Below are positions 2,462 to 22,754 of a stretch of DNA of 32,853 bases, piece after piece. The notes under the pieces were generated by a model. It searched no databases and had not been told where the DNA came from. It saw nothing but the letters and a program-made list of their open reading frames with translations. This DNA is from Microscillaceae bacterium (GTDB taxonomy: Bacteria; Bacteroidota; Bacteroidia; Cytophagales; Microscillaceae): positions 1-32,853 of the forward strand of contig JAABSX010000046.1 in NCBI GenBank assembly GCA_011390205.1, read 5' to 3'. The translations under genes were made by a program, and so were the position numbers. The first letter of the stretch is position 1. The number at the start of each line of letters is the position of its first letter.

Positions 2462-2746
2462 ATTTCGTATTTCTTTTGATACAAAGTTAGGTGTTTTTCT
2501 TTCTCATCAAAAAGAATTTGTGAGAGCGGATTGTTGTGTTGTGGGAGTAAGCTAAATTTAGAAATTTTAACCAATCTGTTTGATTTTTCATGTTCTTTAT
2601 GGCGAATTACTTCCACACAGTGTTTTTTATATGAAAATAACTTAATTATTTCTTAGATTTGTCAAATGGATGGTTTCAAACGTTTGCATTCTTTCATTTC
2701 AAATATTTTACATCCCTCCATTTCAAATGATTTTACCAAAATAAAG

Positions 2747-5700
2747 ATGATGAAAAACATTACTTACCTGTACATTTTGTGCTTTTTGTGTTTACTGATA
2801 GGTAGCACTCATTTAGCTGCACAAAGTCAAGACTTACTTCCACTCGCCAAACGCTATCTTGACCAGAAGCACCATGGCGTTACCAAACAAGCCGACTTTG
2901 ATTGGATAATCACAGATCAATCTTACAGTACCCGCAATCAAGTAACCTACCTCTATCTCAGACAAACCTACCAAGGCGTAGAAATCGTCAATGCCAACAT
3001 CAGTATGGCTCTTAAAGATGGGCGGGTAGTGCATCAAGCTGGAAAGCTTATCTCTAAAATACCTACAAAAGGACTGAGTAAATCTCCTTCTATCAGTGCT
3101 GAAGGGGCTATCCAAAAAGCAGCCGAACAACTTTCGCTCAGTATTACTGAGCCAATAAGACAAGAACAGAGCAAAAACCCTCATTCAAGAGCCGCAATCT
3201 ACAGCAAAGGAGGCATTTCTCTAGAGCCTATTCCCGTAAAAATGGTCTATTGGCAAAACCCCGAAGGAGCACTCGTATTGGCTTGGGATTTGTCGATTTA
3301 CCCCCTTGACCAGCAAAACTGGTGGAGCTTAAGAGTAGATGCACAAACTGGCAGTGTGCTCGAGAAAGGCAACTGGGTTACCAAATGTCAGTTTGATGCC
3401 AAACCACACATACATGCGCAGGGTGAAAGATTAGATTTTGCAAATAATACTTCTCTCATGCCCGAGTGGCTCAAGCATTCTCACCAAAGCCTCAACACGG
3501 GTGAGCAATACAATGTATTCCCGATGCCCATAGAAAGCCCCAACCATGGGGCTCGAAACCTAGAAGTAACCCCTCACAACAGCATTGCTTCTCCTTTTGG
3601 CTGGCATGATACCAATGGAGTAGCAGGGGCAGAGTTTACCACTACTCGTGGCAACAACGTACATGCCTACGAAGACCGCAATGATTCCAATATACCTGGA
3701 TTTAGCCCTGAGGGTGGTGCAAGTTTAAATTTCGATTTTCCCATTAATTTTAATGTTGATCCAGACAGATACCAAGAGGCTTCTATCACCAACTTATTTT
3801 ACTGGAATAACATTATGCATGATGTTTTCTATCATTATGGCTTTGATGAGCAAAGTGGTAATTTCCAAGTTAAGAATTATTCAGGGCAAGGCTTGGGCAA
3901 TGACGATGTGCGTGCCGAAGACCAGGATGGTTCTGGTACTAATAATGCCAATTTTGGGACTCCCCCCGACGGAAGCCGCCCCCGCATGCAAATGTTCCTC
4001 TGGAATCTACCAGCAGGTGGGCCCAAGTTGATAGTCAATAGCCCAGAAGCCATTACAGGCACTTACACTGCCTCAGGATCTGATTTTGGTGGAAATTTAG
4101 ATACTCCTCCAACGGGTGATTTGGTGCTAGTAAATGATGGCACTGCCAACCCCACGCAAGGCTGCGAAGCCTTGATAAATGCTTCCGAAGTGAATGGCAA
4201 GATAGCTGTCGTAGATAGAGGTACTTGTACTTTTGTGCAGAAAGCACTGAATGCCCAAGCTGCGGGTGCTATAGGGCTCATTGTTGTAAATAATACAACA
4301 GGGCTTATCAATATGTCAGGCACGGATTCAGGCATTACGATTCCTATCATCATGATTGGCCAAGAAGATGGGCAACTTATCAAAAACAACTTGGGTACAG
4401 GTGTCAATGCTACTATGCTTGGTGCTGCCACTTTCATTACCAGTAGTTTTGACAATGGAATCATTGCCCACGAATACGGACACGGAATATCTAACCGCTT
4501 AGCAGGTGGTCCTGGTAATTCAAACTGCCTGAATACAACTGAGCAAATGGGCGAAGGATGGAGTGATTATTTTGGGCTTATACTCACGATGAAGCCTGGA
4601 GATATAGGCGCTACCCCAAGGGGAATCGGGACTTACGCCGTTAGCCAGCCCACCACAGGAAGAGGTATCCGCCCTGCACCTTATACCACAGATATGGGTG
4701 TGAATCCTTTTACCTATGCCAACCTTAACAGTAGCAATATCTCGCAGCCTCACGGAATTGGGTTTATATGGTGTACTACACTTTGGGATATGACTTGGCT
4801 CTTCATAGAAAGATATGGACTTGATGAAGATGTATATACAGGCACGGGAGGAAATAACATCGCTCTACAGCTCGTCATGGATGGACTCAAGCTACAGCCC
4901 TGCGGACCAGGATTCGTAGATGGGCGGGATGCTATTTTACTGGCTGACCAACTCAACAATGGCGGAGCAAATCAAGATATTATTTGGCAAGCCTTCGCAG
5001 GTAGAGGCTTGGGTGCAGATGCAGACCAAGGAGACCCCAATAGCCGTGATGATGGCTCGGTATCTTTCGATATGCCCAAAAGTTTACAAATCAGTAAGTC
5101 AGTAAACAAAACACTCTCAGAAACGGGCGATATACTCACCTACGAAATCACCGTGAAAAATATCCTCACAGAAACAGAACAAAACATCAGCGTAGAGGAT
5201 ATTCTAGACAATGGGCTTACACTTGTAGAGGGCTCACTCAGTGAGGGGGGCAGTGCCAATGGAAATACCATTACTTTTACCAAAGCCCAGCTTGTAGCAC
5301 AAGAATCTGTAACTTTCTCTTTTCAGGCAGAAATAATACAAACTGAAGGTACACAAATACTCTTTTCGGATGGGCACGAAGAAGGGGGAACTAACTGGAC
5401 AGCCACTGCTGTAACGAACAGCAACCTATGGACTCTGCAAGGAAATAACCCCAATGGAGGAGCAAATGCTTGGTTTGTACCCAATGTTGGAGCAGTTTCA
5501 TTGCAAACTTTGTCTCTGAACGAGGCGTTTCCTGTTGGGGCATCTTCTAAAATAGCCCTATGGCACGCCTACAACACGGAAATAGGGTATGATGGAGGCA
5601 TCATCGAGGCATCTACAGATGGCGGTATAACTTGGGCTGACCTAGGGCCAATGATGATAGAAAACGGATACGACATAACACTAAACAATAACTTTGAAAA

Positions 5701-6667
5701 TCCCATAGGAGGCAGACCAGCATTTTCAGGAAGTAGTGGAGGCTATATCAAGACAGTCATTAACCTCTCAAGCCTAGCAGGGCAATATGTGAAAATTAGA
5801 TTTAGATTTGGCTCTGATAGCGGGGTAGGTGGCATAGGATGGTATGTAGATGACATCTATGTCTTTGAAGGGGATGAGCAAAGTATCAGCAACCAGGCTT
5901 GCCTTACGTATGATGCTGAGCCAAACCCACGCTGCGCAAACGCACAAGATGTATTGATTCTTTCTGAAATTGTATTGCCAGATTGTGCTGCCAATGCAGG
6001 TCTGATTACTAGCACTATCACATTGCCTGTGGTATTTTGCCAAGATGACAACAGTATCTTGAACTTTGGAAAAATGCACAATGCCCTCAATCCTGACCCT
6101 GGTGCGGGCTTTGCGTACCGTTATTTGATTACTACAAGAGAGTTGCCTTATCAAATCATCGCAAGGAATGCCACAGGAAGTTTTGACCCTACAGCACTTG
6201 CCATTGCTACTTTTAAGATTTGGGGATTCTCTTATGATGAGAGCAATACTGAAACCAATGTAGATACTTATCTCAATGGATTTACTACCGTACAGGCCAT
6301 CCAAGGAGAGATTAATTCAGGACTTACTTGTGCCAAGTTGAGCAATACATTTGAGCTAGGAGGAGTGGCTCAGATTACAAAATCACCTTGTACGGCATTG
6401 CCTTCTATTCAAAGTAACCCTGAAATAAACTACTACCCCAACCCTAGCACTGAGGAGGTTAATATTTCTATCACAGGGCATGCAGGGCAAAAGGCAATGG
6501 TTACTTTGTTTGATGCTAAGGGAATGCCCGTTTATACGGAGGCTTTTGAGGTGTCAGATGGCAATCATACCAAAACCCTAGACATCAGAAAGCTACAAGC
6601 AGGGCTTTATCTTATCAGAATTGGTCTAGGAGATGCCACTTATCAAGATAGGCTCATCGTAGAGTAG
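2747..6667 (+). CDS. Secreted M36 (fungalysin) zinc metalloprotease with FTP propeptide, inserted PA domain, extra beta-sandwich/DUF11-like domains and a T9SS type-A C-terminal sorting domain.
   Basis: Signal peptide MMKNITYLYILCFLCLLIGSTHLAAQ begins at the ATG at 2747; the ORF-track start at 2666 adds 27 non-signal residues. The M36 HExxH motif reads IIAHEYGHGISNRLAGG. A PA domain (GCEALINASEVNGKIAVVDRGTCTFVQKALNAQAAGAIGLIVVNN) is inserted. The C-terminal ~80 aa (NYYPNPSTEEVNISI...GLYLIRIGLGDATYQDRLIVE) matches the Por/T9SS C-terminal sorting domain pattern. Confidence 0.85.
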   Translation: MMKNITYLYILCFLCLLIGSTHLAAQSQDLLPLAKRYLDQKHHGVTKQADFDWIITDQSYSTRNQVTYLYLRQTYQGVEIVNANISMALKDGRVVHQAGKLISKIPTKGLSKSPSISAEGAIQKAAEQLSLSITEPIRQEQSKNPHSRAAIYSKGGISLEPIPVKMVYWQNPEGALVLAWDLSIYPLDQQNWWSLRVDAQTGSVLEKGNWVTKCQFDAKPHIHAQGERLDFANNTSLMPEWLKHSHQSLNTGEQYNVFPMPIESPNHGARNLEVTPHNSIASPFGWHDTNGVAGAEFTTTRGNNVHAYEDRNDSNIPGFSPEGGASLNFDFPINFNVDPDRYQEASITNLFYWNNIMHDVFYHYGFDEQSGNFQVKNYSGQGLGNDDVRAEDQDGSGTNNANFGTPPDGSRPRMQMFLWNLPAGGPKLIVNSPEAITGTYTASGSDFGGNLDTPPTGDLVLVNDGTANPTQGCEALINASEVNGKIAVVDRGTCTFVQKALNAQAAGAIGLIVVNNTTGLINMSGTDSGITIPIIMIGQEDGQLIKNNLGTGVNATMLGAATFITSSFDNGIIAHEYGHGISNRLAGGPGNSNCLNTTEQMGEGWSDYFGLILTMKPGDIGATPRGIGTYAVSQPTTGRGIRPAPYTTDMGVNPFTYANLNSSNISQPHGIGFIWCTTLWDMTWLFIERYGLDEDVYTGTGGNNIALQLVMDGLKLQPCGPGFVDGRDAILLADQLNNGGANQDIIWQAFAGRGLGADADQGDPNSRDDGSVSFDMPKSLQISKSVNKTLSETGDILTYEITVKNILTETEQNISVEDILDNGLTLVEGSLSEGGSANGNTITFTKAQLVAQESVTFSFQAEIIQTEGTQILFSDGHEEGGTNWTATAVTNSNLWTLQGNNPNGGANAWFVPNVGAVSLQTLSLNEAFPVGASSKIALWHAYNTEIGYDGGIIEASTDGGITWADLGPMMIENGYDITLNNNFENPIGGRPAFSGSSGGYIKTVINLSSLAGQYVKIRFRFGSDSGVGGIGWYVDDIYVFEGDEQSISNQACLTYDAEPNPRCANAQDVLILSEIVLPDCAANAGLITSTITLPVVFCQDDNSILNFGKMHNALNPDPGAGFAYRYLITTRELPYQIIARNATGSFDPTALAIATFKIWGFSYDESNTETNVDTYLNGFTTVQAIQGEINSGLTCAKLSNTFELGGVAQITKSPCTALPSIQSNPEINYYPNPSTEEVNISITGHAGQKAMVTLFDAKGMPVYTEAFEVSDGNHTKTLDIRKLQAGLYLIRIGLGDATYQDRLIVE

Positions 6668-6683
6668 AAAGTACTTCATACTT

Positions 6684-6730
6684 AAACCCAAAAAAAGCCC
6701 ATTCAAAACTGATTGGGCTTTTTTTGGGTT
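6684..6730. terminator. Bidirectional rho-independent terminator formed by a perfect 17-bp inverted repeat.
   Basis: AACCCAAAAAAAGCCCA (6684-6700) and TGGGCTTTTTTTGGGTT (6714-6730) are exact reverse complements around an 11-nt loop. The stem is GC-rich at its centre and flanked by A/T runs on both strands, directly after the fungalysin stop. Confidence 0.7.
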
Positions 6731-6902
6731 TAAATAGAAAGATAGCAAAAGTCTATTATCAAGAAATAGACATCAGCAACACCAACAATTTGAAATTATG
6801 ATTACAAACTGACTCAAAATCTGATTAATTTCATAAATTTGTACGAGAGACTGATTTAAAACACAATTTTATACTTATACGTTGTAAGTGCTTTAACCCA
6901 TT

Positions 6903-8354
6903 TTGAAATTTATGCAAAATAATACTTGGAAAACTATTTTTATCTCTTTGATTGCGGGCTTTACAGGGGCTTTTGCATACCAGCTGACTATAAACTTTTC
7001 TTCTGAAAATACAGAGAAACTACCAATCTTGGAAGAGCAAGCAGTCTACCGAAATGTAAAAAAAGACCCTCTACCCCCTGTCAATGAAGATATTAACTTC
7101 GTAACTGCTTCAGCTCTGAGCACACCCTCAGTAGTCTATATCAAAACTGTGTTTGACAACTACAGCTCTACCAATATCTTTGATTTGTATTTCGGAGATG
7201 GTGGCGGCGGAAGAAAATCTGCTGGCTCAGGTTCAGGCGTGATTTTCACCTCTGACGGATACATCGTTACCAATTACCACGTCATAGAGAATGCCGAACG
7301 AATAGAAGTCATTCATCAAAAGAAAAGCTATGAAGCCACCTTGATAGGCACAGACCCCTCTTCTGACTTGGCAATCATCAAAATAGAATCTAAAAACCTG
7401 CCTGCAGTGAAGCGAGGAAACTCTAAAAGTCTGAGAGTAGGGGAGTGGGTCATCGCGGTAGGCAATCCATTTAACCTAGAATCTACCGTTACGGCTGGCA
7501 TCGTCAGTGCTAAAGGAAGAGATATTGCACTGCTCAGTGGGCAGTTCCCCTTAGAATCATTCATTCAAACAGACGCAGCCATCAATCCAGGCAACAGTGG
7601 AGGGGCATTGGTCAATATCAAAGGAGAGCTTGTGGGCATCAATACAGCCATTTTATCTCGCACTGGCTCTTACACTGGGTATGGCTTTGCGGTGCCGATA
7701 GATATTGTTGCCAAGATTTTTAATGACATCATTCAATATGGAGAGGTTCAGAAAGCATTCACAGGGCTACAAGTAACGGATTTGGATTCAGAAAAAGATA
7801 AAAAATACAAACTAAACCTTGATAAATATGAGGGGGCAGTAGTGGTCAGTAGCCAGGCATCAAGCAATGCTGCCAAAGTGGGCATGGAAGAAGGAACGGT
7901 GATTCTGAAAATCAACAATGACGATGTAGAGGGTAAGAGTAGTTTTGAAGAGCTGATAAGCTACTACAGACCTGGAGATAAAGTGAAAATTACTTTCTTA
8001 AAAAAGGGTAAAATACAAGAAACTACCCTCATACTCACCAACCGAAACGGCACTACCGAAGTGCTGAAAAATGAAACCTTTGTATCCGAAGGTCTGGGTG
8101 TAGAGCTAGAGCCTGTATCCAAGATAGAAAAAGAAAGACTTAACATAGAGGAAGGTGTCAGGGTAGTGAAAGTCAGGCGAGGGCTGTTTAGTAGGTTAGG
8201 AATTCAAGAAGGATTTATCATCACTTCTATCAACAAAACACCCGTTACTGAGCCTGCCCAAGTAGAAAAAATACTGGGCAACATCAGTGGAAGGGTTTAT
8301 ATAGAAGCCATCAGCCCCGAAGGAGTGAGGGGCTATTTTAATTATTATTTTTAA
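6903..8354 (+). CDS. htrA: HtrA/DegP/DegQ (Do-family) periplasmic serine endopeptidase with PDZ domain(s).
   Basis: N-terminal membrane anchor/signal (MKFMQNNTWKTIFISLIAGFTGAFA). Trypsin-like catalytic segments HVIENAERIEV (His), DLAIIKIE (Asp) and GNSGGALVNIKGELVGINTAI (Ser). The C-terminal region is PDZ-like. The start could also be the ATG at 6912. Confidence 0.9.
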   Translation: MKFMQNNTWKTIFISLIAGFTGAFAYQLTINFSSENTEKLPILEEQAVYRNVKKDPLPPVNEDINFVTASALSTPSVVYIKTVFDNYSSTNIFDLYFGDGGGGRKSAGSGSGVIFTSDGYIVTNYHVIENAERIEVIHQKKSYEATLIGTDPSSDLAIIKIESKNLPAVKRGNSKSLRVGEWVIAVGNPFNLESTVTAGIVSAKGRDIALLSGQFPLESFIQTDAAINPGNSGGALVNIKGELVGINTAILSRTGSYTGYGFAVPIDIVAKIFNDIIQYGEVQKAFTGLQVTDLDSEKDKKYKLNLDKYEGAVVVSSQASSNAAKVGMEEGTVILKINNDDVEGKSSFEELISYYRPGDKVKITFLKKGKIQETTLILTNRNGTTEVLKNETFVSEGLGVELEPVSKIEKERLNIEEGVRVVKVRRGLFSRLGIQEGFIITSINKTPVTEPAQVEKILGNISGRVYIEAISPEGVRGYFNYYF

Positions 8355-8362
8355 TTTAACAA

Positions 8363-8758
8363 ATGCCTGAAATGGAATCAAAAAAGAATGGAATAAGCCC
8401 CAATATGTTATTAATGGGCAGCATAGTAGGTATTTTATTTGGTTTTAATCTTGATTTGCCTTTTCTAATATTGGCAGGCATAGGTGGGCTAATATGGAGA
8501 AGGCAGATACTTTCCAAGCAGAAAAAAGCACTGAGGGCGGGCCCAGTGCAGCCACGTTTTGAACTGACTGATGATTTGATTATGCGTCTGGCAAAGCGTC
8601 TAGGAGGTAAAATATCTGCAGAAGACCTTTCGGCACAGACCAGCCTAAGTGTAGAGCAGGCAAAGGCTCGGTTAGAAACACTGATGCAAAGAGGAGATTG
8701 TGAAATAGACTTAGATGGCATAGATGCAAATGGAAGAATTTATTATCAGTTTAACTGA
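8363..8758 (+). CDS. Small membrane-anchored protein with a C-terminal winged-helix-like domain; paralogue 1 of a tandem pair, function unknown.
   Basis: 131 aa. Hydrophobic TM segment LLMGSIVGILFGFNLDLPFLILAGIGGLIW, then a basic linker, then a conserved ~68-aa domain LTDDLIMRLAKRLGGKISAEDLSAQTSLSVEQAKARLETLMQRGDCEIDLDGIDANGRIYYQF. It starts 8 bp after the htrA stop. The antisense ORF 8356..8721 is rejected. Confidence 0.65.
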   Translation: MPEMESKKNGISPNMLLMGSIVGILFGFNLDLPFLILAGIGGLIWRRQILSKQKKALRAGPVQPRFELTDDLIMRLAKRLGGKISAEDLSAQTSLSVEQAKARLETLMQRGDCEIDLDGIDANGRIYYQFN

Positions 8759-8860
8759 ATTTAAAAATGCTTTAATTTTTTAATTATCAATAGATTATAG
8801 GAGAAATCATAAATCATAAAACTAAAAACGCTCAAGTACTTAACTTAATTAAAATACATT

Positions 8861-9184
8861 ATGACACCATTTCTAATAATGGTCATGATTGCTGCCGCAA
8901 GTATGATCATAATCGTGTTTGGTAGTTCAAGCAAAAAATCTTCAAAAAACATTGCAAGCTCTCGGGCGCCATCACAAAAAGTATTTGTCTTGACCGATGA
9001 CCTTATCATCCGTCTTGCCAAGCGGCTAGGAGGCAAAATAACCGCCTCTGACCTCTCTGCACAGACCAGCCTGAGTATAGAGCAAGCCAAAGCACGTCTT
9101 GACATCATGCAAGAGAAAGGGATTTGTGAGATAGACTTAGATGCTGTGGATAGGAGTGGAAAGATTTATTATCACTTTGTGTAA
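8861..9184 (+). CDS. Paralogue 2 of the membrane-anchored winged-helix-like protein pair.
   Basis: 107 aa. N-terminal TM (MTPFLIMVMIAAASMIIIVFG), a Ser/Lys-rich linker, then LTDDLIIRLAKRLGGKITASDLSAQTSLSIEQAKARLDIMQEKGICEIDLDAVDRSGKIYYHF. This is ~70% identical to the C-terminal domain of the upstream gene, and ~75% nucleotide identity is visible by eye. Confidence 0.65.
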   Translation: MTPFLIMVMIAAASMIIIVFGSSSKKSSKNIASSRAPSQKVFVLTDDLIIRLAKRLGGKITASDLSAQTSLSIEQAKARLDIMQEKGICEIDLDAVDRSGKIYYHFV

Positions 9185-9307: not shown

Positions 9308-9347
9308 CAAAAAAGCAGCAATTCAATCTGAATTGCTGCTTTTTTGA
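9308..9347. terminator. Bidirectional rho-independent terminator between convergent genes.
   Basis: AAAAAAGCAGCAATTCA ... TGAATTGCTGCTTTTTT: a 12-bp perfect stem (9314-9325 / 9329-9340) with an A-run upstream and a T-run downstream. Confidence 0.7.
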
Positions 9348-11493: not shown

Positions 11494-11958
11494 TTAAGCA
11501 ACTGATTTTATCTTGATTATTTGGTTTCTAAATAAAACATCATCACCTGATAGATGCCCTATAAGTGCTTGCCCGAGTGGAGAGGCAGGAGAGATACAAA
11601 AGCACGTAACTGCTTCCCAAGAGATTTTGCCAAGCCCAATACTGAGGTAATAATAGCCTGTATTGGCTTCTATGAGGCTTCCGAGTCTTATTTTAGGGTT
11701 TTTGTATTTTGAGTCTATTCTGTGCATGACTTCTTGCATTTTGATTATTTCGGTGATTTGGGTGTTGATTTTGTCTTTTTCTTGTTGAATCAGTGCCGGA
11801 CCAGTTTCGTATTTATCTCCCATGCTGCTTTTGGTATCTTGTTGGGCGGCTTCTTTGAGCTCTTTGAGGCTGTCTTTAGCTTCTTGGAGTTTTGCTTGCA
11901 GGGTATCTAAGCAGAGGCTGTGTATTTGTGTTTTGAGCTGCTGGAGGTGATTATTCAT
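11494..11958 (-). CDS. GreA/GreB-family transcription elongation factor paralogue.
   Basis: 154 aa. An N-terminal coiled-coil (LQAKLQEAKDSLKELKEAAQQ...) and a C-terminal FKBP-like Gre domain (KIRLGSLIEANTGYYYLSIGLGKISWEAVTCFCISPASPLGQALIGHLSGDDVLF). It starts 17 bp downstream of the histidine-kinase stop. Confidence 0.75.
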   Translation of the reverse strand: MNNHLQQLKTQIHSLCLDTLQAKLQEAKDSLKELKEAAQQDTKSSMGDKYETGPALIQQEKDKINTQITEIIKMQEVMHRIDSKYKNPKIRLGSLIEANTGYYYLSIGLGKISWEAVTCFCISPASPLGQALIGHLSGDDVLFRNQIIKIKSVA

Positions 11959-11975
11959 AGGATTATTTTAAGCGT

Positions 11976-14900
11976 TTAGGCAGTGATGGGAAGTGTGATG
12001 TAAAAAGAGCTGCCTTTTGCGAGGGTACTTTCTACACGGATACTTCCTTTGTTTTTTTCTAAAAATTCTTTGCAGAGTATCAGCCCCAGACCCGTACCTT
12101 TTTCATTGGAAGTGCCTCTGCTGCTTTGCATTTGATTGGAGAATAACAAATCTAATTTATTTTTTTCTATGCCTACCCCCGTATCTTTGATAAGGATTTC
12201 CACCTCATTTTTATCAGGGTGATTTTTCGCACTGATGGTAATTTTACCTCCTTTTTCACAAAACTTGACGGCGTTGTTGATTAAGTTTCGGAACACGAGC
12301 TTAATCATTTCTCTATCTGCATAGACTTTAGTGTCGGCATTGGTTTGGTTTTTTATTTTTATTTCTTTTCGGGTAGCGATGGGGTCAAAGAGTTGGACAT
12401 TGTCTCTGATGAGAGAGTTGATAGAAAGTATCTCAGGCATTGTCTGTAGTCCTTCCATTTGGCTTTTTGCCCAGAAGAGGAGATTATCTGTAAGTGAGAG
12501 TGTACTCTGCACACTGTTGCCAAGTTCGGGGAGGATTTTTTGCAGTTCTTTTTCAGAAAAATCACCTGAGCGAAATATCTGCAATGTAGCCATTAGCTGA
12601 TTTAGAGGGCTTCGTAGGTCATGTGAGATGATAGAAAAAAGTCTATTTTTGATTTGGTTAGCTTCTTGAAGCTTTGTGGCTTGGCTTTTTACCTCTTCTT
12701 GTTGCCGCCTTAGCACATCATTCATTGCCATGATGTCATCTTTTTGTGCCAAGATTTCCTCATTGATTTGTTGTATCTCTCGAGTGCGTTCTTCTACTCT
12801 TTTTTCTAATATAGAGGTCTGTGCTCGGAGATTTTTAGTATAAATATTCACGATAATCACTACCAAGACCGTAATCAGGCTAAGGTAAATTAGGTATGCC
12901 CACCAAGTACGGTAAAAAGGTGCTTTGATTTCGAAAGCGTATTTTACGGTGTCGCTTTCTAAGTCATAGATATCTTTGGCTTTGACATAGAGTATATACT
13001 TACCTTCGTTGAGGTTTGTAAAATTAACACTAGACTGGTAGCTCCATTCAGACCATTGCTGGTCTTGCCCTTCTAAAAAGTATCGATACTGAATTTTAGA
13101 TTCCTCTTTATAGTGATGTGCCGTAAACTGAAAATAAAGCTTATTGAGGTCAAAAGGGATAGGGGCATTGTCGATGATGATACTGTTTTTTGCCAGTAGT
13201 TTGCTCTGTTGCTGGGTGTCTCCTGCTTTTACAGAGGTGATAGACATACGAAAGGGCTTCTTGATATTGTTTTCCTTTTCGGGGTTGTATTCGTAGAGTC
13301 TGTCCCCGATTGCAAACCATACCTTGCCATTCTCTAGCACGAGCATCGGTACATCTACATCTACTATGAAGTTATTGGCAGGGTTTTCTACTCTATGAAA
13401 TGGGCGAGTGTTGAGGGTGTAAGTTCCTGATTTTTGTTTTCTGAGTACTCCCCCTACCTGCCTACCTGGGTTACGCTCGCTTATCCAGACATATACATCA
13501 CCTGAGGGGTGCTCCACAAAATTATATACGCATTTGTTTTTGAGTGCTTCTCTGAAATCTGGGTGGGGTTCAAATCGGTCATTTTTAGCATCATATTGAT
13601 AGAATCCGTCTTCGGTTGTAAAAGTAAGTGAACCATCCTTAAACCTGTATATACGGTTATTGACAGAGCTAGGAAGTCCTTGTGGAGTGCCATATTCTTT
13701 TTTACTTATGACAGAGTCTAGTGCTGCATTGAGTTTTAGCTTACGGATTCCGACAGCATAGTTACCTATCCAGATATTTTCTTGCGCATCTTTTTTAATA
13801 AACCTGATTTCACCATCGATTCCTTTAATTTTTGTACTTTTCCAGGTATCACCGACTTTGCTGAGTTTATTGAGTCCATTATGATAAGTGCCAAAGAGGT
13901 AGGTTTGAGCATTTATTTTTTCTAAGCACATCACGTAGTTTTCTTCTAAGAGAAGGGTACTCTTGTTATTGTCTATCACAAAAAGCCCTGCACTAGTAGT
14001 TGCAAAGCATTGATCATCAAACTCAAAGAAGTTCCAGATTTCGCTGTTGGTATTGATAAGTGTACGAAAATTTTTGTCAGAAGTCTGATATTCTATCCTT
14101 GATGCGCTGCCTACATATTGCTTTGAGTTATGTTGTGCCAATGCCAGAATAGGGTCCCCTTGTAAGGTAGGCTGATAATAGTAATCTATGGGAGAAGAGA
14201 GCATCACTTGTGATACCTCGTGCCCAGTGAGCCAGAGGTTATTCATTTTATCTTCATATATGTGATTATAAGTATTTCCATTAAGCCCTTGTTCTCTTTT
14301 TATTTGATAGATAATGTCGCCTTTGGTATTGAGGATAATGAGCCCTTCTTCTAAGATATTTATAGCGATTAACCCATTGTGAAGCCCCTCAATAATAAAA
14401 ATATCTTTGTTTTTGATAAGTGCGTTGATTTTGCCACTTATTTTTTTAGTGTGGGTTACTGTTGAGTTTTTGAGACTTAGTAAAAGCAATTCATGGTCTT
14501 CTGACAAGGCATAGAGCATATCATTCTTATCAGGAAAATTACCTATATAACTAAGTGTCACTTGAGGGAGGCTGGCAATTAACTTACTCCATGGTTTTAG
14601 TTGCTTGCCTTCCACATAAAATAATCCTTCGGTATTATAGACACAAACCTTGTTTTGAAACACGAATATATCTGAGTAACCAATAGACCACAGAGATTTT
14701 AGGCTAGAAGGAATTACAGCGAACTCTTTGGTTGCCAAATCATAAATGTAGAGCATCTCTGAGTTTGCAAAGACCACTGATTTATCATTGGCTTTGATGG
14801 TATAGACGGCCAAGTTCTTGATAATTTCTTTTGGAAGTTTATCAGTAAGAGACCGAATGACAGTCGATCCATCTGGGCGTGTCTCTAGGTATCCAATTAA

Positions 14901-15185
14901 ATTATCACCCCCTAGATAGATAGTACCATTATTTGAAGTATGCAGTACTCTTGCAAAGGTATTTACCGTACATATAATGGACTCCCATTTGTTGCCATCA
15001 TAGCGCAAAATAGCATCACTGTTGGCCACATAGATGATTTGCTTGGCATCTTGCGCCACTTGCCATGTCTGGAAACCTCCTTTGTAGAGCTTTGAAGTAT
15101 AATGCTGTATAAATGGGGTTTGAGCAACCACACTGCTGTGCCCCCATATAACAAGGAATAAATAGAATTGGAGTTTAAGTTTCAT
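11976..15185 (-). CDS. Sensor histidine kinase with a large periplasmic two-component-regulator beta-propeller / Y_Y_Y domain; no receiver domain.
   Basis: Signal peptide MKLKLQFYLFLVIWGHSSVVAQ. About 750 aa of propeller-like repeats. A TM segment (WWAYLIYLSLITVLVVIIVNIY). HisKA H-box SIISHDLRSPLNQL. HATPase_c N/G boxes (NLINNAVKFCEKGG, DTGVGIE, GTGLGLILCKEFLE). Confidence 0.85.
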   Translation of the reverse strand: MKLKLQFYLFLVIWGHSSVVAQTPFIQHYTSKLYKGGFQTWQVAQDAKQIIYVANSDAILRYDGNKWESIICTVNTFARVLHTSNNGTIYLGGDNLIGYLETRPDGSTVIRSLTDKLPKEIIKNLAVYTIKANDKSVVFANSEMLYIYDLATKEFAVIPSSLKSLWSIGYSDIFVFQNKVCVYNTEGLFYVEGKQLKPWSKLIASLPQVTLSYIGNFPDKNDMLYALSEDHELLLLSLKNSTVTHTKKISGKINALIKNKDIFIIEGLHNGLIAINILEEGLIILNTKGDIIYQIKREQGLNGNTYNHIYEDKMNNLWLTGHEVSQVMLSSPIDYYYQPTLQGDPILALAQHNSKQYVGSASRIEYQTSDKNFRTLINTNSEIWNFFEFDDQCFATTSAGLFVIDNNKSTLLLEENYVMCLEKINAQTYLFGTYHNGLNKLSKVGDTWKSTKIKGIDGEIRFIKKDAQENIWIGNYAVGIRKLKLNAALDSVISKKEYGTPQGLPSSVNNRIYRFKDGSLTFTTEDGFYQYDAKNDRFEPHPDFREALKNKCVYNFVEHPSGDVYVWISERNPGRQVGGVLRKQKSGTYTLNTRPFHRVENPANNFIVDVDVPMLVLENGKVWFAIGDRLYEYNPEKENNIKKPFRMSITSVKAGDTQQQSKLLAKNSIIIDNAPIPFDLNKLYFQFTAHHYKEESKIQYRYFLEGQDQQWSEWSYQSSVNFTNLNEGKYILYVKAKDIYDLESDTVKYAFEIKAPFYRTWWAYLIYLSLITVLVVIIVNIYTKNLRAQTSILEKRVEERTREIQQINEEILAQKDDIMAMNDVLRRQQEEVKSQATKLQEANQIKNRLFSIISHDLRSPLNQLMATLQIFRSGDFSEKELQKILPELGNSVQSTLSLTDNLLFWAKSQMEGLQTMPEILSINSLIRDNVQLFDPIATRKEIKIKNQTNADTKVYADREMIKLVFRNLINNAVKFCEKGGKITISAKNHPDKNEVEILIKDTGVGIEKNKLDLLFSNQMQSSRGTSNEKGTGLGLILCKEFLEKNKGSIRVESTLAKGSSFYITLPITA

Positions 15186-15678
15186 ATTTGTTTTAAATCA
15201 CACAAAATACGGATTGACTCCATTTGTTATTGGTATCAATGAAAATAGGTATTTTTATGGAAGATTAAAATATTTTACCTAAAATTTTGCCATACTTTTA
15301 GAAGAGCAACCTAAGATACCCCTAAACTTACGGTGAAATCTAAGAGTAGTTTTGAATCTACAGATTTATAAAGTAATATTTAATCAAAATTGGAACTTTA
15401 TCCAGATATGAATCCTAATTATTCAAAAAAAGAAACTTTCCCATAAAGAGTTATATCTTTATAACATCTTGTGTATAAACATTATTTTACAGTTGGTCTT
15501 CAAAAAATAATCATTCATCTATTTTTTTTGTAGTTTTCTTGTTTTTATCTTATCAGGAAAAATTTTGACAAGCTTGTTGAACGGGGCTTAGATGTGTTTT
15601 TTGTAGTAAGCCCATAAACATCTTGCATTTGTAAGTTTAGATAGAGATTATCTTCAATGATAGCTATTAAGAGCGGAT

Positions 15679-16665
15679 TTATACCATAGGGCTAGGTTTA
15701 GAAGATAAATCTATGGTAAAATGTTTGTCCTCAAATTCTTCAAAAGACTGAAAGATTTGTTTTTGTTGCCAGTAAAAACCCACTTTTTTTTCTTCAGGGA
15801 AATACTGTGCAGTGTATAAAGTACCAAACCCCTTCTCAAAGCGAGTCTGATAAAGCGGAGGTTTTAGGAAGTTGCTCAGGAATGTATCTTGGCTTTGATA
15901 GGGGTTATCTAAGTGAGTGATGAGCTGATGATGGCGCTCTAGGGTCGCACTCATTTTGGCATAGGCTGGCCAAGTGATGCGGTCTTGGTGATTGGTGATG
16001 GCAAGTTCTTGGGTGATGAGTGGGTCGCTATCAGGAGCCAAGAATATGGTGCAGTGTTTGCCAGAGGCCTCTAGCACAGTAAGGTTGTATGCCATGTGCA
16101 CAGGGATTCGGTTCACCTTTTCATTTACTTCTTCAATACTTTCACAGGTTTCTAATAGATACCGAACGAGCAGAGGCACACCAAAGCCCTTGCCCAACAC
16201 TTGGCTTCCTCCGAAAGTAAGCGAAATAGACAGCCCGCTGTCATTTATCCCATCTAGCACGCCCCAGTTACAATCACTCATAGCTATTACAGGTCTGAGC
16301 CAATTAGAATACAATACGACACCCTCAAAATAATGAGGGCTGTAATCATAGTTACGTATAAGGGAGAGTCCGTTTTTTTTCCAGACAGCTTGTGAGCATC
16401 CTGATAGATAAGGAGGGGGACAGTAGCCACTTAAAAACCGAGCTGCCACATCTCCGCCTCCTGCCAGCCCCACGAGTGCATCATAGACAGGCACTAATTC
16501 AGGCATATACTCTTTGAGTTTGCGGTAGCTTGTGGCATAGCCGACCCTTCTGAGTAGCCCTTCACTCACAAACCATTTACGGTAATAAGGCCAAGATTTA
16601 TCAAATAAGTGTTTCCATTTTTCGCCAGGTTGTGCCTCTTCAAGGCAGTTAATGTATAAAAACAT
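15679..16665 (-). CDS. Peptidase C45 family (acyl-CoA:6-aminopenicillanic-acid acyltransferase-like) Ntn-hydrolase.
   Basis: A Gly89-Cys90 self-processing site (YLSG|CSQAVWKKNGLSLIRNYDY), followed by segments that align by eye with isopenicillin-N acyltransferase (GQNWDF ~ IRNYDY; GIIGKVGFNSAGVAV ~ GVLDGINDSGLSISL). Confidence 0.6.
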   Translation of the reverse strand: MFLYINCLEEAQPGEKWKHLFDKSWPYYRKWFVSEGLLRRVGYATSYRKLKEYMPELVPVYDALVGLAGGGDVAARFLSGYCPPPYLSGCSQAVWKKNGLSLIRNYDYSPHYFEGVVLYSNWLRPVIAMSDCNWGVLDGINDSGLSISLTFGGSQVLGKGFGVPLLVRYLLETCESIEEVNEKVNRIPVHMAYNLTVLEASGKHCTIFLAPDSDPLITQELAITNHQDRITWPAYAKMSATLERHHQLITHLDNPYQSQDTFLSNFLKPPLYQTRFEKGFGTLYTAQYFPEEKKVGFYWQQKQIFQSFEEFEDKHFTIDLSSKPSPMV

Positions 16666-16924
16666 AAGTTGTATTGTTTTTGTAGCAATGCCAAACCATT
16701 ACTACGTTGAATTTATCAGATAAAAGAAAGGTATTGCTTTTTACAAGATAGAGAATGGCAAGATATTCCGTATTTTAAATATAAAGAAAAAATATGGAAA
16801 ATTAAAGGCTTTGATTGAAAATCAGAGCAAATGCGGGGCAATGTCTGGATAAAATACCCCTAAGATTATCAAGGACGCTAAATGCTCGGCAATCCAAGGG
16901 GCATTCTTTTTTTACAAAATCAAT

Positions 16925-18349
16925 TTAGAGCTCGAAGCATTCTCCTTTTTGGGGAGTTTCTACTTGTTGATAGCCCTCTTCGTTCAGTGTATGCTTAAAG
17001 TCTTGCATGGCAGATGCCTCTCCGTGCACTAAAAACAGTTTTTTGAGTTTTTTGGGAGATTGATAATGTACAAAATCGAGCAAATCATCCAAGTCTCCAT
17101 GTCCACTAAAGTTATCGATACTCTCAATACGTGCTTTGATAGGGATATCACGTTTTTCAAATTTGATGGTTTTTTCACCGCTTCTAAGGTCGTGCCCTAT
17201 CGTGCCCTCTGAAGCATACCCTATCAAGAAAATGGTAGCGTAAGGGTTATTAAGGTTTTCTTTGACGTGATGTTCTATCCTTCCTCCCTGAATCATCCCT
17301 GAAGAAGAGATGATAATGCACGGCTCTCTGTAGCTTGTGATGGCCTTGCTCTCTTTGATATTGTCCACAAATACAAGATTCTCAAAATCAAAGAGTTGTT
17401 TATTGGCTTTTCTGAAATCTTGTGCTTCTTGATTGAGCCATGAGTGGTATTTTTCGTGAATCTCCGTGCTTTTGAGTGCTAGGGGGCTATCTGTAAATAT
17501 TTTGATATTGGGCAGTTTTCCTTGTACTCGGAGTTTATTCAGTGTAAAAAGCATGGCTTGTGTGCGGCCCACACTGAATGCTGGCACAATGAGTCTTCCA
17601 GGGATATCTACGCAGGTAGATTTGATAATATCATAAACAGGCCCTTCAGCAGATTCTTTTGAGGTGTGTCGGCGGTTGCCATAGGTGCTTTCACAGACCA
17701 AGTAATCAACCTCAGGCACAGGTGCAGGATCTACCAAAAGTGGGTAATCTTTTCGCCCAATATCTCCTGAGAAGCAAATTGTTTTTTTTCCTCCATTTTC
17801 TTGAATCTCAAAAAGCACATGGGCTGCCCCTAGCAAATGCCCCGCAGGGATAAGCTGTAGGCTGATGCCATCTCCTATTTTTTGTTTTTTATGAAAGGGC
17901 AATGTTACAAAATGGTCTAGAGCTTGGTGCACTTGTGTATGCACATAAAGTTCTTTGTATTCGGCCGTGTTGCGTAGCTTATTGAATAGCTGCTTTTTTT
18001 TGTGGATTCTTTTTATTTTCTTTTGATTGAGCGAGGCAGAGTCATTTAATAAAATCTCTGCAAGTTCGTAAGTAGCCGATGTAGTGAATATTTTCCCTTC
18101 AAATCCCTCTCTGATGAGGTTGGGGATAAATCCAGAGTGGTCTATGTGTGCGTGTGTAAGCACTACGGCGTGTATCATAGAAGGCTCAAAAGCGAATAAA
18201 CCCTTTTGTGTTTCGGGCGTATCTTTTTGGCGGCGGCGATTTTCCATATCCAGACCACAATCAATCAATACCCTAAAATCATCTGCTGTTTCTAACAGAA
18301 ACATACTCCCAGTTACTTGCTGGGATGCTCCCCAAAATGTCAATTTCAT
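16925..18349 (-). CDS. MBL-fold metallo-hydrolase with beta-CASP / RNA-specificity domain (RNase J / CPSF-like ribonuclease).
   Basis: MBL motif VLTHAHIDHSG. A downstream beta-CASP-type region and a C-terminal RMMBL-like end. The start is taken at the internal Met (MKLTFWGASQQVTGSM, ATG at 18349) rather than the ORF-track start at 18415, because the MBL fold normally begins right there. Confidence 0.8.
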   Translation of the reverse strand: MKLTFWGASQQVTGSMFLLETADDFRVLIDCGLDMENRRRQKDTPETQKGLFAFEPSMIHAVVLTHAHIDHSGFIPNLIREGFEGKIFTTSATYELAEILLNDSASLNQKKIKRIHKKKQLFNKLRNTAEYKELYVHTQVHQALDHFVTLPFHKKQKIGDGISLQLIPAGHLLGAAHVLFEIQENGGKKTICFSGDIGRKDYPLLVDPAPVPEVDYLVCESTYGNRRHTSKESAEGPVYDIIKSTCVDIPGRLIVPAFSVGRTQAMLFTLNKLRVQGKLPNIKIFTDSPLALKSTEIHEKYHSWLNQEAQDFRKANKQLFDFENLVFVDNIKESKAITSYREPCIIISSSGMIQGGRIEHHVKENLNNPYATIFLIGYASEGTIGHDLRSGEKTIKFEKRDIPIKARIESIDNFSGHGDLDDLLDFVHYQSPKKLKKLFLVHGEASAMQDFKHTLNEEGYQQVETPQKGECFEL

Positions 18350-18643
18350 GTGATTTTCCTCAATTATCATAAGCCAGAATAATGAATATACTGTGATGCC
18401 ATGTTTATGTATCACAGCCTTTTTTCAAAAATAGGCTTTCTTACTGTATTTTCTTTTAATTTTACAAAGGCAGGCTTTGCATTTTACAAAAATACAAAAT
18501 TGGCAGTGATTTAAGCGAAAAACTTTTTAGCTTTTTCAGATTGGCAAGCCCTTCTCAGGTGGTGAGAGAGAGAGAATCTTATAACTGAAGTTGGGTTTTT
18601 GAAGATAATCTTTAAATATTTGTGCATATTTAGACTTAATTTT

Positions 18644-20969: not shown

Positions 20970-22754
20970 TTATTCTGTCAGAATATTTATGTTTTCTTCT
21001 AGTCTAAAGATAGGGTAGCGCATGTATTCTTTTTCAAAGTAAGGGGAGTTTTGGTAAATAAAATAAAGTTGTGAATCAGGATTTTTCGCAAATGCTTCGT
21101 CTGTGTCTATTTTTTCCTTCAATTTTTTTCTGAGTGTTGCATCATTTTTTAAGAGTTCTTCTGCAAGGTCTTCAAAGACATAGCTTGAGTAGCCTTCTTT
21201 TTGCTGTAAAATACTGTCAAAGAAATTCCAATTAAAGAAGGAGTCTATTGCTTGGGGTTCTAGGGTTTCTATGATATAGCGGTTGCTGCTTTGATTCGTA
21301 AAAATGACATAATCTCCTTTGCGCAAAAAGATACTTTGTTTTTTCTTTTCTACTTCTGTCTGGTAATGTACATAATGGCTTTCGTAGGGCTGTGTGCGTG
21401 TTTTGAAATCAGTGATGTAGTAGGCATCGAGGTCTATGATTTGGTCTTGGCTGAGCTGTTTCATTTCCACATCATTTCGTTTCATTAAATCTATGACCTT
21501 GTGCCAAGCCTGTGGGATAAGATAAGCGATGGGTTTTTGGATGGAAATGCTCGGTTTGTAAAATTCATAAAAAGGGATTTCTTTGGTAAAAGGCTTGTCA
21601 GGATGGTATTTGAGCCTTTGCCCTGTGCTTACTTTGCTTGGGATGCGTGTAGCTTCATAGCCTCTAAAGAGCAATACACTAGAAGTATCACGCCTTACCT
21701 GCCAGTCTAGCACAAACTCATTTTGGCTGATGGCATCTTGGGCTTGCTTTGCTCGGAGGGCTTTGATTTTTTCGCCTTCGGTAGCCAATATTTCCAGAAA
21801 AGACTGCATCAATTGGTAGGTAGCTTGCACACGAGCAGGGTAAGGCTTAAGCATGTGTGTCTCACTGATAAAGCCTAGCGTATGAAAAAGGGTAGTATAG
21901 CCCGAAGTGTATCGAGGAGAATCATAAAATCCAGCAAAGCCCTCAGGTTCGGGTGTTCGCCCAAACACATTGACATAGGGAGTCATGGGCTGTTTTTTAT
22001 CATTCATTTGTTGGTTTAAGTGAGGGATAAACTCATTTCTGAGATAATTGCCCAATCCTCCGCCTAGCTTATCGGGCTGTGTGGCGAGGTAGGTCATGAC
22101 ATATTGGTAATCTGCTCCGTTGCTGACGTGATTGTCTAAAAATACATGGGGCTTCCAAGTTTGGAATATTTCTGTAAATGCCAAGGCATTCTTAGAATCT
22201 GCCTTGATAAAATCTCTGTTGAGGTCTAGGTTACGGGCATTTCCTCTAAAACCATAGCTAAGAGGCCCGTTTTGGTTGGCTCTGCTGTAGGCACTTCTAT
22301 TGAGAGCTCCGCCGATGTTATAAAAAGGAATGGCTATCAGCACAGTATTTTTTAGGAGTTTCTGAAGTGATTTTTTTTGTGCCAAATCCCTCAGTAGCAT
22401 CATTGTGGCATCTACTCCGTCGGGCTCACCGGGGTGTATGGCATTATTGACCATAAAGATGAGCTTTCCCTGTGCTTGAAGGTCTTCGGGTTCAAAATTT
22501 TTATCTTCCGAAAAAATCACCAAGTGAAGCGGTAGCCCACTATCAGTAGTGCCATAGGTCAGGAGTTTAATCTCAGGATATGCCCCTGCTAGTTTTTCGA
22601 GGTAGGCAATGCCCTCTGAGTAAGTAAGGGTTTCTTGTCCTTGTGTTTGCTCAAATTTAGTGAGCCACTCAGATTTTTGTTGTGCAAAGCCATAAAAGAC
22701 ACAGCAGCAGGCAAGGCACAGCGTAAGTATGTTTGTAAAGTATTTAAGCATCAT
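20970..22754 (-). CDS. M14-family zinc carboxypeptidase, secreted.
   Basis: Signal peptide MMLKYFTNILTLCLACCCVFYGFAQ. Zn-binding HxxE motif in NNAIHPGEPDG. Length 594 aa. Confidence 0.7.
   Translation of the reverse strand: MMLKYFTNILTLCLACCCVFYGFAQQKSEWLTKFEQTQGQETLTYSEGIAYLEKLAGAYPEIKLLTYGTTDSGLPLHLVIFSEDKNFEPEDLQAQGKLIFMVNNAIHPGEPDGVDATMMLLRDLAQKKSLQKLLKNTVLIAIPFYNIGGALNRSAYSRANQNGPLSYGFRGNARNLDLNRDFIKADSKNALAFTEIFQTWKPHVFLDNHVSNGADYQYVMTYLATQPDKLGGGLGNYLRNEFIPHLNQQMNDKKQPMTPYVNVFGRTPEPEGFAGFYDSPRYTSGYTTLFHTLGFISETHMLKPYPARVQATYQLMQSFLEILATEGEKIKALRAKQAQDAISQNEFVLDWQVRRDTSSVLLFRGYEATRIPSKVSTGQRLKYHPDKPFTKEIPFYEFYKPSISIQKPIAYLIPQAWHKVIDLMKRNDVEMKQLSQDQIIDLDAYYITDFKTRTQPYESHYVHYQTEVEKKKQSIFLRKGDYVIFTNQSSNRYIIETLEPQAIDSFFNWNFFDSILQQKEGYSSYVFEDLAEELLKNDATLRKKLKEKIDTDEAFAKNPDSQLYFIYQNSPYFEKEYMRYPIFRLEENINILTE

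Follow-up and report, generated by a model that had tools for sequence, protein, structure and literature searches.

Membrane-anchored winged-helix proteins encoded beside htrA in Microscillaceae-like bacteria

Homologs of htrA are often co-transcribed with genes for small inner-membrane regulatory proteins, as in algU-mucABCD and sigE-rseA-htrA, which encode an extracytoplasmic function (ECF) σ factor and an anti-σ factor with a periplasmic domain. A second kind of system, represented by ToxR, CadC, and TcpP, uses a transmembrane (TM) segment to keep a winged-helix-type domain on the cytoplasmic side of the inner membrane, and ToxR and TcpP have functional links to regulated proteolysis and to HtrA-family proteases of the periplasm (PMC6242745, PMC4388833). 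Here we describe a locus with likenesses to both, found in a 32,853-nucleotide stretch of DNA (the window, meaning the whole stretch analyzed) from a Microscillaceae bacterium (assembly GCA_011390205.1, contig JAABSX010000046.1), in which htrA is directly followed by two tandem paralogous genes, A and B, for membrane-anchored winged-helix proteins. Unlike ToxR, CadC, and TcpP, which consist of an N-terminal OmpR/PhoB-type winged helix-turn-helix (wHTH), a TM segment, and a periplasmic sensor, A and B begin with the anchor, end with the winged helix, and have no periplasmic domain, so that their architecture is not ToxR/CadC-like; their domain is acidic and gave no Trans_reg_C match in a Pfam scan. 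Neither an ECF σ factor nor an anti-σ factor gene occurs in the neighborhoods of A and B. We found no paper on an operon joining HtrA with a membrane-anchored winged helix, or on Microscillaceae HtrA. To our knowledge, envelope-stress signaling in Bacteroidota is poorly understood, and if A and B work with HtrA, they would add to the envelope protein quality control of this phylum a cytoplasmic arm that has not been described before.

The htrA-linked genes and their conservation

The three genes lie on the + strand in the order htrA (6912 to 8354), A (8372 to 8758), and B (8861 to 9184). A sequence-only reading of the window had described htrA followed by two membrane-anchored open reading frames (ORFs) of 131 and 107 amino acids (aa), spaced by 8 bp and about 100 bp, and the ORF list agrees with it in layout, coordinates, and spacings. 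The longest ORF for A (8363 to 8758, 131 aa) starts 8 bp past the htrA stop, and the deposited gene call (P0001) and the orthologs place the start at Met4 (8372, 128 aa); residue numbers below follow the 131-aa form. B encodes 107 aa and is the protein recovered by profile search as P0005. A and B are identical at 49 of 71 aligned positions (69%; E 2e-36), a similarity far beyond chance and close to the 70% first estimated. In pairwise Nei-Gojobori comparisons (A-A, B-B, and A-B), the proportion of nonsynonymous differences (pN, 0.18 to 0.31) lies far below the saturated proportion of synonymous differences (pS, 0.66 to 0.83), indicating that both genes are under purifying selection. This constraint, together with homologs in nine further lineages, identifies A and B as real genes.

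An A- or B-type gene stands directly 3' of htrA, on the same strand, in 9 of the 10 lineages of the close subfamily: the window, L001 (= L002, L012, L020), L003, L004 (= L005), L006 (= L015), L007 (= L008), L009, L014, and L016 (= L017). Across these loci, identity to the window proteins is 61 to 84% for HtrA and 44 to 73% for A. The flanking genes differ among the linked lineages, and in seven of them (the window, L001, L004, L006, L007, L009, and L016) both flanks change while htrA and the A- or B-type gene stay side by side. Comparison with L001 further revealed an inverted block containing genes for a Beta-CASP RNase, an AAT protein, a Y_Y_Y histidine kinase, and a 154-aa protein, which lies downstream of htrA on the - strand in the window (11494 to 18415) and upstream of it and co-oriented in L001 (1512 to 8162, + strand), with breakpoints that flank the htrA-A-B trio exactly. 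Intergenic gaps at these loci range from 2 to 246 bp and are short (2 to 17 bp) in four lineages. The proposed linkage is thus kept in the close subfamily, where the paralogs are neither absent nor separated from htrA as a rule, and it is confined to one clade.

Tandem duplication is a peculiarity of the window's sub-clade, most relatives having a single copy. B-type genes occur only in the window, L001, L003, and L009, the last of which has B alone; either anchor type can stand alone beside htrA. In a neighbor-joining tree, B-type sequences fall into two groups alongside the sub-clade's own A copies rather than forming one B clade, and the single-copy A genes of other lineages stand apart from that sub-clade. 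This tree placement and the confinement of B to the window's sub-clade indicate that the duplication was recent and local. In the metagenome-assembled genome (MAG) Cytophagales bacterium La3_concoct.176, contig L012 carries htrA and A at its end and breaks off within the 5' part of B, about 100 bp beyond the A stop, whereas the B winged helix opens a separate contig, L013; the break was likely caused by the paralogous repeat, and other MAGs could have tandem copies hidden in this way.

The single-copy lineages show a further recurring arrangement. In L004 (6380 to 8577), L006 (6472 to 8646), L014 (5197 to 7180), and L016 (3399 to 3779), a convergent gene for a TM2+SHOCT membrane protein follows A, sometimes overlapping it. 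Beyond it lies a gene for a HAMP-GAF protein in L004, L006, and L014, and the gene at this place in L016 is cut by the contig end. The HAMP-GAF part of a HAMP-GAF-PAS-SpoIIE protein encoded at L010 (2766 to 5396) is 40% identical to the L004 protein, and the HAMP-GAF gene may be a second recurring neighbor of the family.

It is likely that htrA, A, and B form a three-gene transcription unit in this Microscillaceae-like (Cytophagales, Bacteroidota) bacterium. From the ORF list and RNA folding, the three same-strand genes are bracketed by two strong terminator-like hairpins. The first, at the end of an M36 protease gene (6683 to 6732, + strand), is a 19-pair stem-loop of -32.1 kcal/mol followed by a U run and bounds the htrA unit on its 5' side; the second (9308 to 9346, + strand) has 18 pairs followed by a T run, folds at -24.6 kcal/mol, and would close the unit as an intrinsic terminator. 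A terminator scan found no + strand site between them. At 6834 to 6841 (+ strand), 71 bp 5' of the htrA ATG, a motif search found a promoter-like -7 box, TAAATTTG, that fits TAnnTTTG, the Bacteroidota σA consensus, and the box probably serves as a promoter element of htrA. Matches to TAnnTTTG were seen by eye 5' of htrA in six relatives as well (L001, L004, L006, L007, L009, and L014). No such box was found directly before A or B in the motif search, and the A-B spacer contains neither a hairpin nor a TAnnTTTG box and folds weakly (-4.9 kcal/mol). This spacer is 102 bp long in the window and just 11 to 12 bp in L001 and L003. The bracketing hairpins, the single box 5' of htrA, the lack of a box or terminator between genes, and the short A-B gap in L001 and L003 together argue for co-transcription. 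Rfam and tRNA scans gave no match within or near the operon. Long antisense ORFs lie opposite A and B in the window (8356 to 8721 and 8845 to 9108, - strand; 121 and 87 aa) and opposite the htrA 3' end plus A in L001 (9799 to 10284, - strand; 161 aa), and they are most simply seen as shadow ORFs.

The longest htrA ORF (6903 to 8354) gives 483 aa from a TTG; the ATG at 6912, giving 480 aa and matching the starts of the orthologs, is the probable true start. The predicted product is a DegP/DegQ-type serine protease with an N-terminal hydrophobic signal or anchor, a trypsin-like domain (Trypsin_2, E 1.4e-33), and two PDZ regions, one matching PDZ_2 (residues 288 to 376, E 1.6e-12) and the other PDZ_Tricorn and PDZ_1 (residues 420 to 463). 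The translation shows the motifs of the His-Asp-Ser triad, TNYHV, SDLAII, and GNSGGA. Aligned over its full length with the Do-family model TIGR02037, the protein scores 379.1 bits, below the 416.2 cutoff, and judged by its sequence it is a divergent HtrA/DegP/DegQ (Do-type, S1C) member with full-length architecture. Its N-terminal hydrophobic segment contains a conserved GAFA(F/Y)(Q/H)(L/F), replaced by GAGVFHW in L006, and is followed by the protease domain; the protease and PDZ domains, lying behind this signal or anchor, are predicted to be periplasmic.

Fold, anchor, and family of A and B

The C-terminal domain of A (8558 to 8755, + strand; residues 66 to 131) and that of B (8984 to 9181, + strand; residues 42 to 107) are winged helices. 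AlphaFold2, run on A with a 23-sequence alignment, gave a mean predicted local distance difference test score (pLDDT) of 79.7, rising above 90 over residues 70 to 131, where helices (H) and strands (E) follow each other in canonical winged-helix order: H70-79, E83-85, H86-92, H97-110, E113-116, and E127-130. This is the H1-S1-H2-H3-S2-wing-S3 topology of the superfamily. The wHTH layout originally read from the letters was borne out by this model and by Foldseek, and the fold is certain, as is the absence of a family name: in Pfam and NCBIfam scans, A and B matched nothing above cutoff (all matches E >= 0.007), and the 23 subfamily members likewise gave no model at threshold. The subthreshold matches all belong to winged-helix families (EAP30, EutK_C, HemN_C, HTH_24, and DnaD); MarR and DnaD_N likewise stayed below their thresholds. 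The best match in a profile search of the PDB was the winged helix of SNF8/Vps22 (E 0.0026), with Lrp, TFE, and GntR next, and Foldseek with the single domain returned ArsR/SrnR, ESCRT-II, AspA, eS25, and Z-alpha, all at E >= 0.013. A PADLOC scan of A and B found no link to defense systems.

The domain carries a net charge of -1 to -4 in every one of the 23 subfamily members, the wing (for example, DLDGIDANGR) is net negative in 22 of them, and the median over 206 domains of the wider family is -2. Because domain and wing are acidic, canonical DNA binding is disfavored. In the AlphaFold2 model, the domain of A is minimal, with 66 residues and no dimerization helices. Conserved residues include Q99, K101, and R103 in helix 3, along with R75 and R79 in helix 1. 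A role as redox sensor for the invariant Cys113 was considered and rejected: the column holds Leu, Phe, or Val in P0036 and the wider family and is a core β-strand position.

The two paralogs differ in their anchors. The sequence-only reading had given each protein one N-terminal TM helix, which holds for B (residues 1 to 21) and fails for A, where hydropathy shows a glycine-rich hydrophobic stretch (8402 to 8497, + strand; residues 14 to 45) and AlphaFold2 places helices 13-30 and 33-56 over it as a helix-break-helix hairpin. A-type anchors in general are glycine-rich hydrophobic stretches of 31 to 41 residues with a central polar or proline break, and B-type anchors are single TM helices of 20 to 24 residues that begin at residue 1, with nothing before them. 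A would expose at most a loop of a few residues to the periplasm, and B essentially nothing. The anchor is followed by a basic linker of 15 to 25 residues; the K/R/S-rich linker and the C-terminal domain of about 66 to 68 aa are as first described. In A, the N-terminal flank of the anchor has two K/R, and the C-terminal flank has seven K/R and no D/E; in the window's B, five K/R follow the TM helix; and in all 23 subfamily members, the C-terminal flank has 2 to 8 K/R and 0 to 1 D/E. This positive-inside bias around the anchor predicts a cytoplasmic winged helix in all 23, across the inner membrane from the HtrA protease domain. The N terminus of B was also considered as a signal peptide, a candidate rejected for lacking a positive n-region and for the K/R cluster that comes immediately behind its hydrophobic stretch.

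The close subfamily, of about 25 proteins, is rare, narrow, and MAG-only. A word-indexed search of 5.8 billion proteins returned 3 matches with a single sequence and 26 with a six-sequence profile, named either as hypothetical proteins of "Microscillaceae bacterium" MAGs or generically as "hypothetical protein," and the named members come from Microscillaceae or Cytophagales MAGs. Scans of metagenome and genome contigs added few loci, their sensitivity limited by the short peptide pattern. An exhaustive profile search of 1.84 billion representatives reached much further, with 240 proteins at E <1e-3 and 43 at <1e-10. In 130 of 168 family proteins, a TM segment precedes the winged helix or helices, and among the 168 the domain occurs once in 109, twice in 55, and three times in 4, with occasional fusions to an RDD membrane domain or an adenylate cyclase. 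The htrA-linked domain corresponds to the second domain of the two-domain group (HHalign probability 99.2%, E 2.4e-19). A two-domain relative modeled with AlphaFold2 (pLDDT 91) has a TM helix and two winged helices joined by a flexible linker, and its best structural matches in the PDB are the tandem winged-helix scaffolds ESCRT-II, ScpB, and RPC62; its predicted template modeling score (pTM) of 0.53 and disordered linker give no sign of a fixed interface between the winged helices that would mimic an A-B dimer.

With about 240 cluster representatives, the domain stands for an uncurated winged-helix family in which an anchor is followed by one to three acidic winged helices, and such anchor-first winged helices could be a general way to recruit cytoplasmic partners to the membrane. 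Some two-domain members without a TM segment (P0045, P0058, P0061, P0078, P0088, and similar proteins) begin with a short, basic, amphipathic-looking stretch such as MAIFDIFRRYKEAV or MGLWKSAKAYFKKQR, and N termini of this type could be peripheral membrane-binding helices.

Candidate functions of A and B

Our tentative preference, a little short of an even chance with its anatomical claims included, goes to a role for A and B as cytoplasmic adaptors or regulators that are tethered to the membrane and co-expressed with HtrA. Both would be anchored in the inner membrane, with the basic linker and the winged helix in the cytoplasm and HtrA on the periplasmic side. The target of the winged helix would be a macromolecule of the cytoplasm, and the acidity of domain and wing makes a protein more probable than DNA. 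Any coupling to HtrA would come through co-expression, contacts between membrane helices, or both. We prefer this reading to a DNA-binding one on account of the acidic domain and wing, the lack of dimerization helices, the lack of a shared operator, and the scaffold-like tandem relatives.

Several points weigh against it. Most bacterial winged helices bind DNA; the conserved Q99, K101, R103, R75, and R79 could contact it; and when single domains are compared, ArsR and MarR repressors match just as well as ESCRT-II. The binding partner of A and B is putative, and their topology is read from charge bias only. The link to HtrA is open to doubt as well: the htrA-A gap reaches 246 bp in L007; the close homolog in L010 is not beside htrA and follows the HAMP-GAF-PAS-SpoIIE gene; the distant members checked (the L011, L018, L019, L021, and P0024 loci) all lie away from htrA; and the adjacency could reflect a gene order passed down in one bacterial family, with no functional link behind it.

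The DNA-related points feed the strongest rival, unlikely as we hold it to be, that A and B are membrane-bound transcription factors, ToxR/CadC-like with the domain order reversed, which regulate the htrA operon or an envelope-stress regulon and take their input from HtrA or the state of the membrane through their membrane helices. It is favored by the conserved polar and basic residues of helices 1 and 3, by the ArsR-, MarR-, and Lrp-type repressors among the best fold matches, and by the fact that htrA homologs often belong to envelope-stress regulatory operons such as algU-mucABCD and sigE-rseA-htrA. There is also a precedent in ToxR, whose stability is controlled by DegS and DegP (PMC6242745). 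However, the domain and wing are acidic in essentially all members, the minimal domain has no helices for dimerization, the tether measures just 15 to 25 residues, and there is no periplasmic sensor domain. An operator search in the htrA upstream regions of seven loci found the TAnnTTTG promoter box as the only shared element.

Somewhat less probable still is the absence of any functional link, in which case A and B would serve an unrelated membrane-proximal process and owe their position to inherited gene order. All linked loci come from one narrow clade with HtrA at least 61% identical, L010 and all the distant members checked are away from htrA, and the recurrence of TM2-SHOCT (L004, L006, L014, and L016) and HAMP-GAF genes (L004, L006, and L014, with a homolog in L010) can be seen as ordinary synteny. 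Yet the pair stays intact while both flanks change in seven lineages, the inversion breakpoints flank the trio exactly, the intergenic gaps are 2 to 17 bp in four lineages, and no terminator separates the genes.

A more specific idea, which we consider quite improbable, is that HtrA with A and B makes a split trans-envelope signaling pair: the PDZ protease would act as the periplasmic sensor, and the sensor-less winged-helix proteins would relay envelope protein-folding stress to a cytoplasmic target by contacting the HtrA membrane helix, the target being DNA or an ESCRT-II-like protein scaffold and with no σ/anti-σ or two-component system involved.

Very improbable, in our judgment, is the release of a soluble winged helix by regulated proteolysis under envelope stress, with HtrA, a rhomboid, or a site-2 protease as the cutter. 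The co-transcribed protease gene and the glycine/proline-rich anchor with its helix breakers would suit it, and in L004 alone a divergent rhomboid gene lies three genes upstream of htrA. Against this, no intramembrane protease gene is conserved in the neighborhoods, and B is predicted to be N-out/C-in, not the type II orientation generally preferred by RseP-type site-2 proteases. Initiation by HtrA also lacks support: with no periplasmic domain, only a few-residue loop in A, and no N-terminal tail in B, there is nothing periplasmic to cut and no site-1 target. The sequence-only reading had also named anti-σ-like and HtrA substrate or adaptor roles. That A and B are anti-σ-like, or serve HtrA directly in the periplasm as substrates or adaptors, has only htrA adjacency and the membrane anchor in its favor and is highly improbable, given that no σ70 or ECF gene (Sigma70_r2/r4) is adjacent in any locus, that the fold is a winged helix rather than an RseA/ZAS-type anti-σ domain, with no extracytoplasmic part, and that charge places the globular domain in the cytoplasm, with the protease and PDZ domains of HtrA in the periplasm.

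The impact of the finding is limited, the htrA-linked subfamily being narrow and MAG-only and the functions given to A and B putative. New here are an uncurated winged-helix family, its anchor-first and sensor-less design, and a clade-specific link to an htrA operon.

Other genes of the window and likeness to described systems

Directly 5' of htrA, with the strong terminator in between, lies the gene for a 1,333-aa secreted M36 fungalysin-type metalloprotease (2666 to 6667, + strand) that carries PA, DUF11, and MAM-like domains together with a C-terminal sorting domain for type IX secretion. An 832-aa ORF (28860 to 31358, - strand) matches MVP_shoulder (E 2.2e-30) and Vault_3 (E 2.1e-9) and, by these matches, is a bacterial homolog of the major vault protein of eukaryotes. 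At the window edge, a bacterial 16S rRNA gene (32255 to 32853, + strand) is truncated after its 5' 611 positions. Two genes, one of 594 aa (20970 to 22754, - strand) and one of 154 aa (11494 to 11958, - strand), had no Pfam match at E <= 1e-5, and the latter is conserved beside the histidine kinase gene in L001.

As a type of mechanism, what we propose for A and B is known in general from RodZ, a small bitopic inner-membrane protein whose cytoplasmic helix-turn-helix (HTH) binds a protein, MreB, and not DNA. RodZ has an N-terminal Xre-type HTH and a periplasmic C-terminal domain and shares neither sequence nor architectural homology with A and B. In structure, the comparison leads elsewhere. 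SNF8, a subunit of ESCRT-II (EAP30 family: Vps22/SNF8 and Vps36), is the top Foldseek match of the two-domain relative (E 3.5e-5), and ESCRT-II, ScpB, and RPC62 use protein-binding winged helices in tandem, as found in the relatives of A and B with two or three domains. The likeness to ESCRT-II is at fold level only, EAP30 scoring 14.7 bits against a 26.8 cutoff, and unlike ESCRT-II, A and B have one winged helix each, are membrane anchored, and have no ESCRT-III/PspA-type gene nearby. Of the curated Pfam models, EutK_C (PF16365) comes closest to the wider family, reaching E 1e-8 in one two-domain relative, whereas its matches to A and B are weak (E 0.054 and 0.18; 13.9 and 12.2 bits against a 27.5 cutoff). 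Like the domain of A and B, EutK_C is a small HTH on a nonregulatory protein, but it is fused to a microcompartment shell protein and not to a membrane anchor. Although members of neither, A and B stand structurally nearest to the ESCRT-II/EAP30 and EutK_C types.

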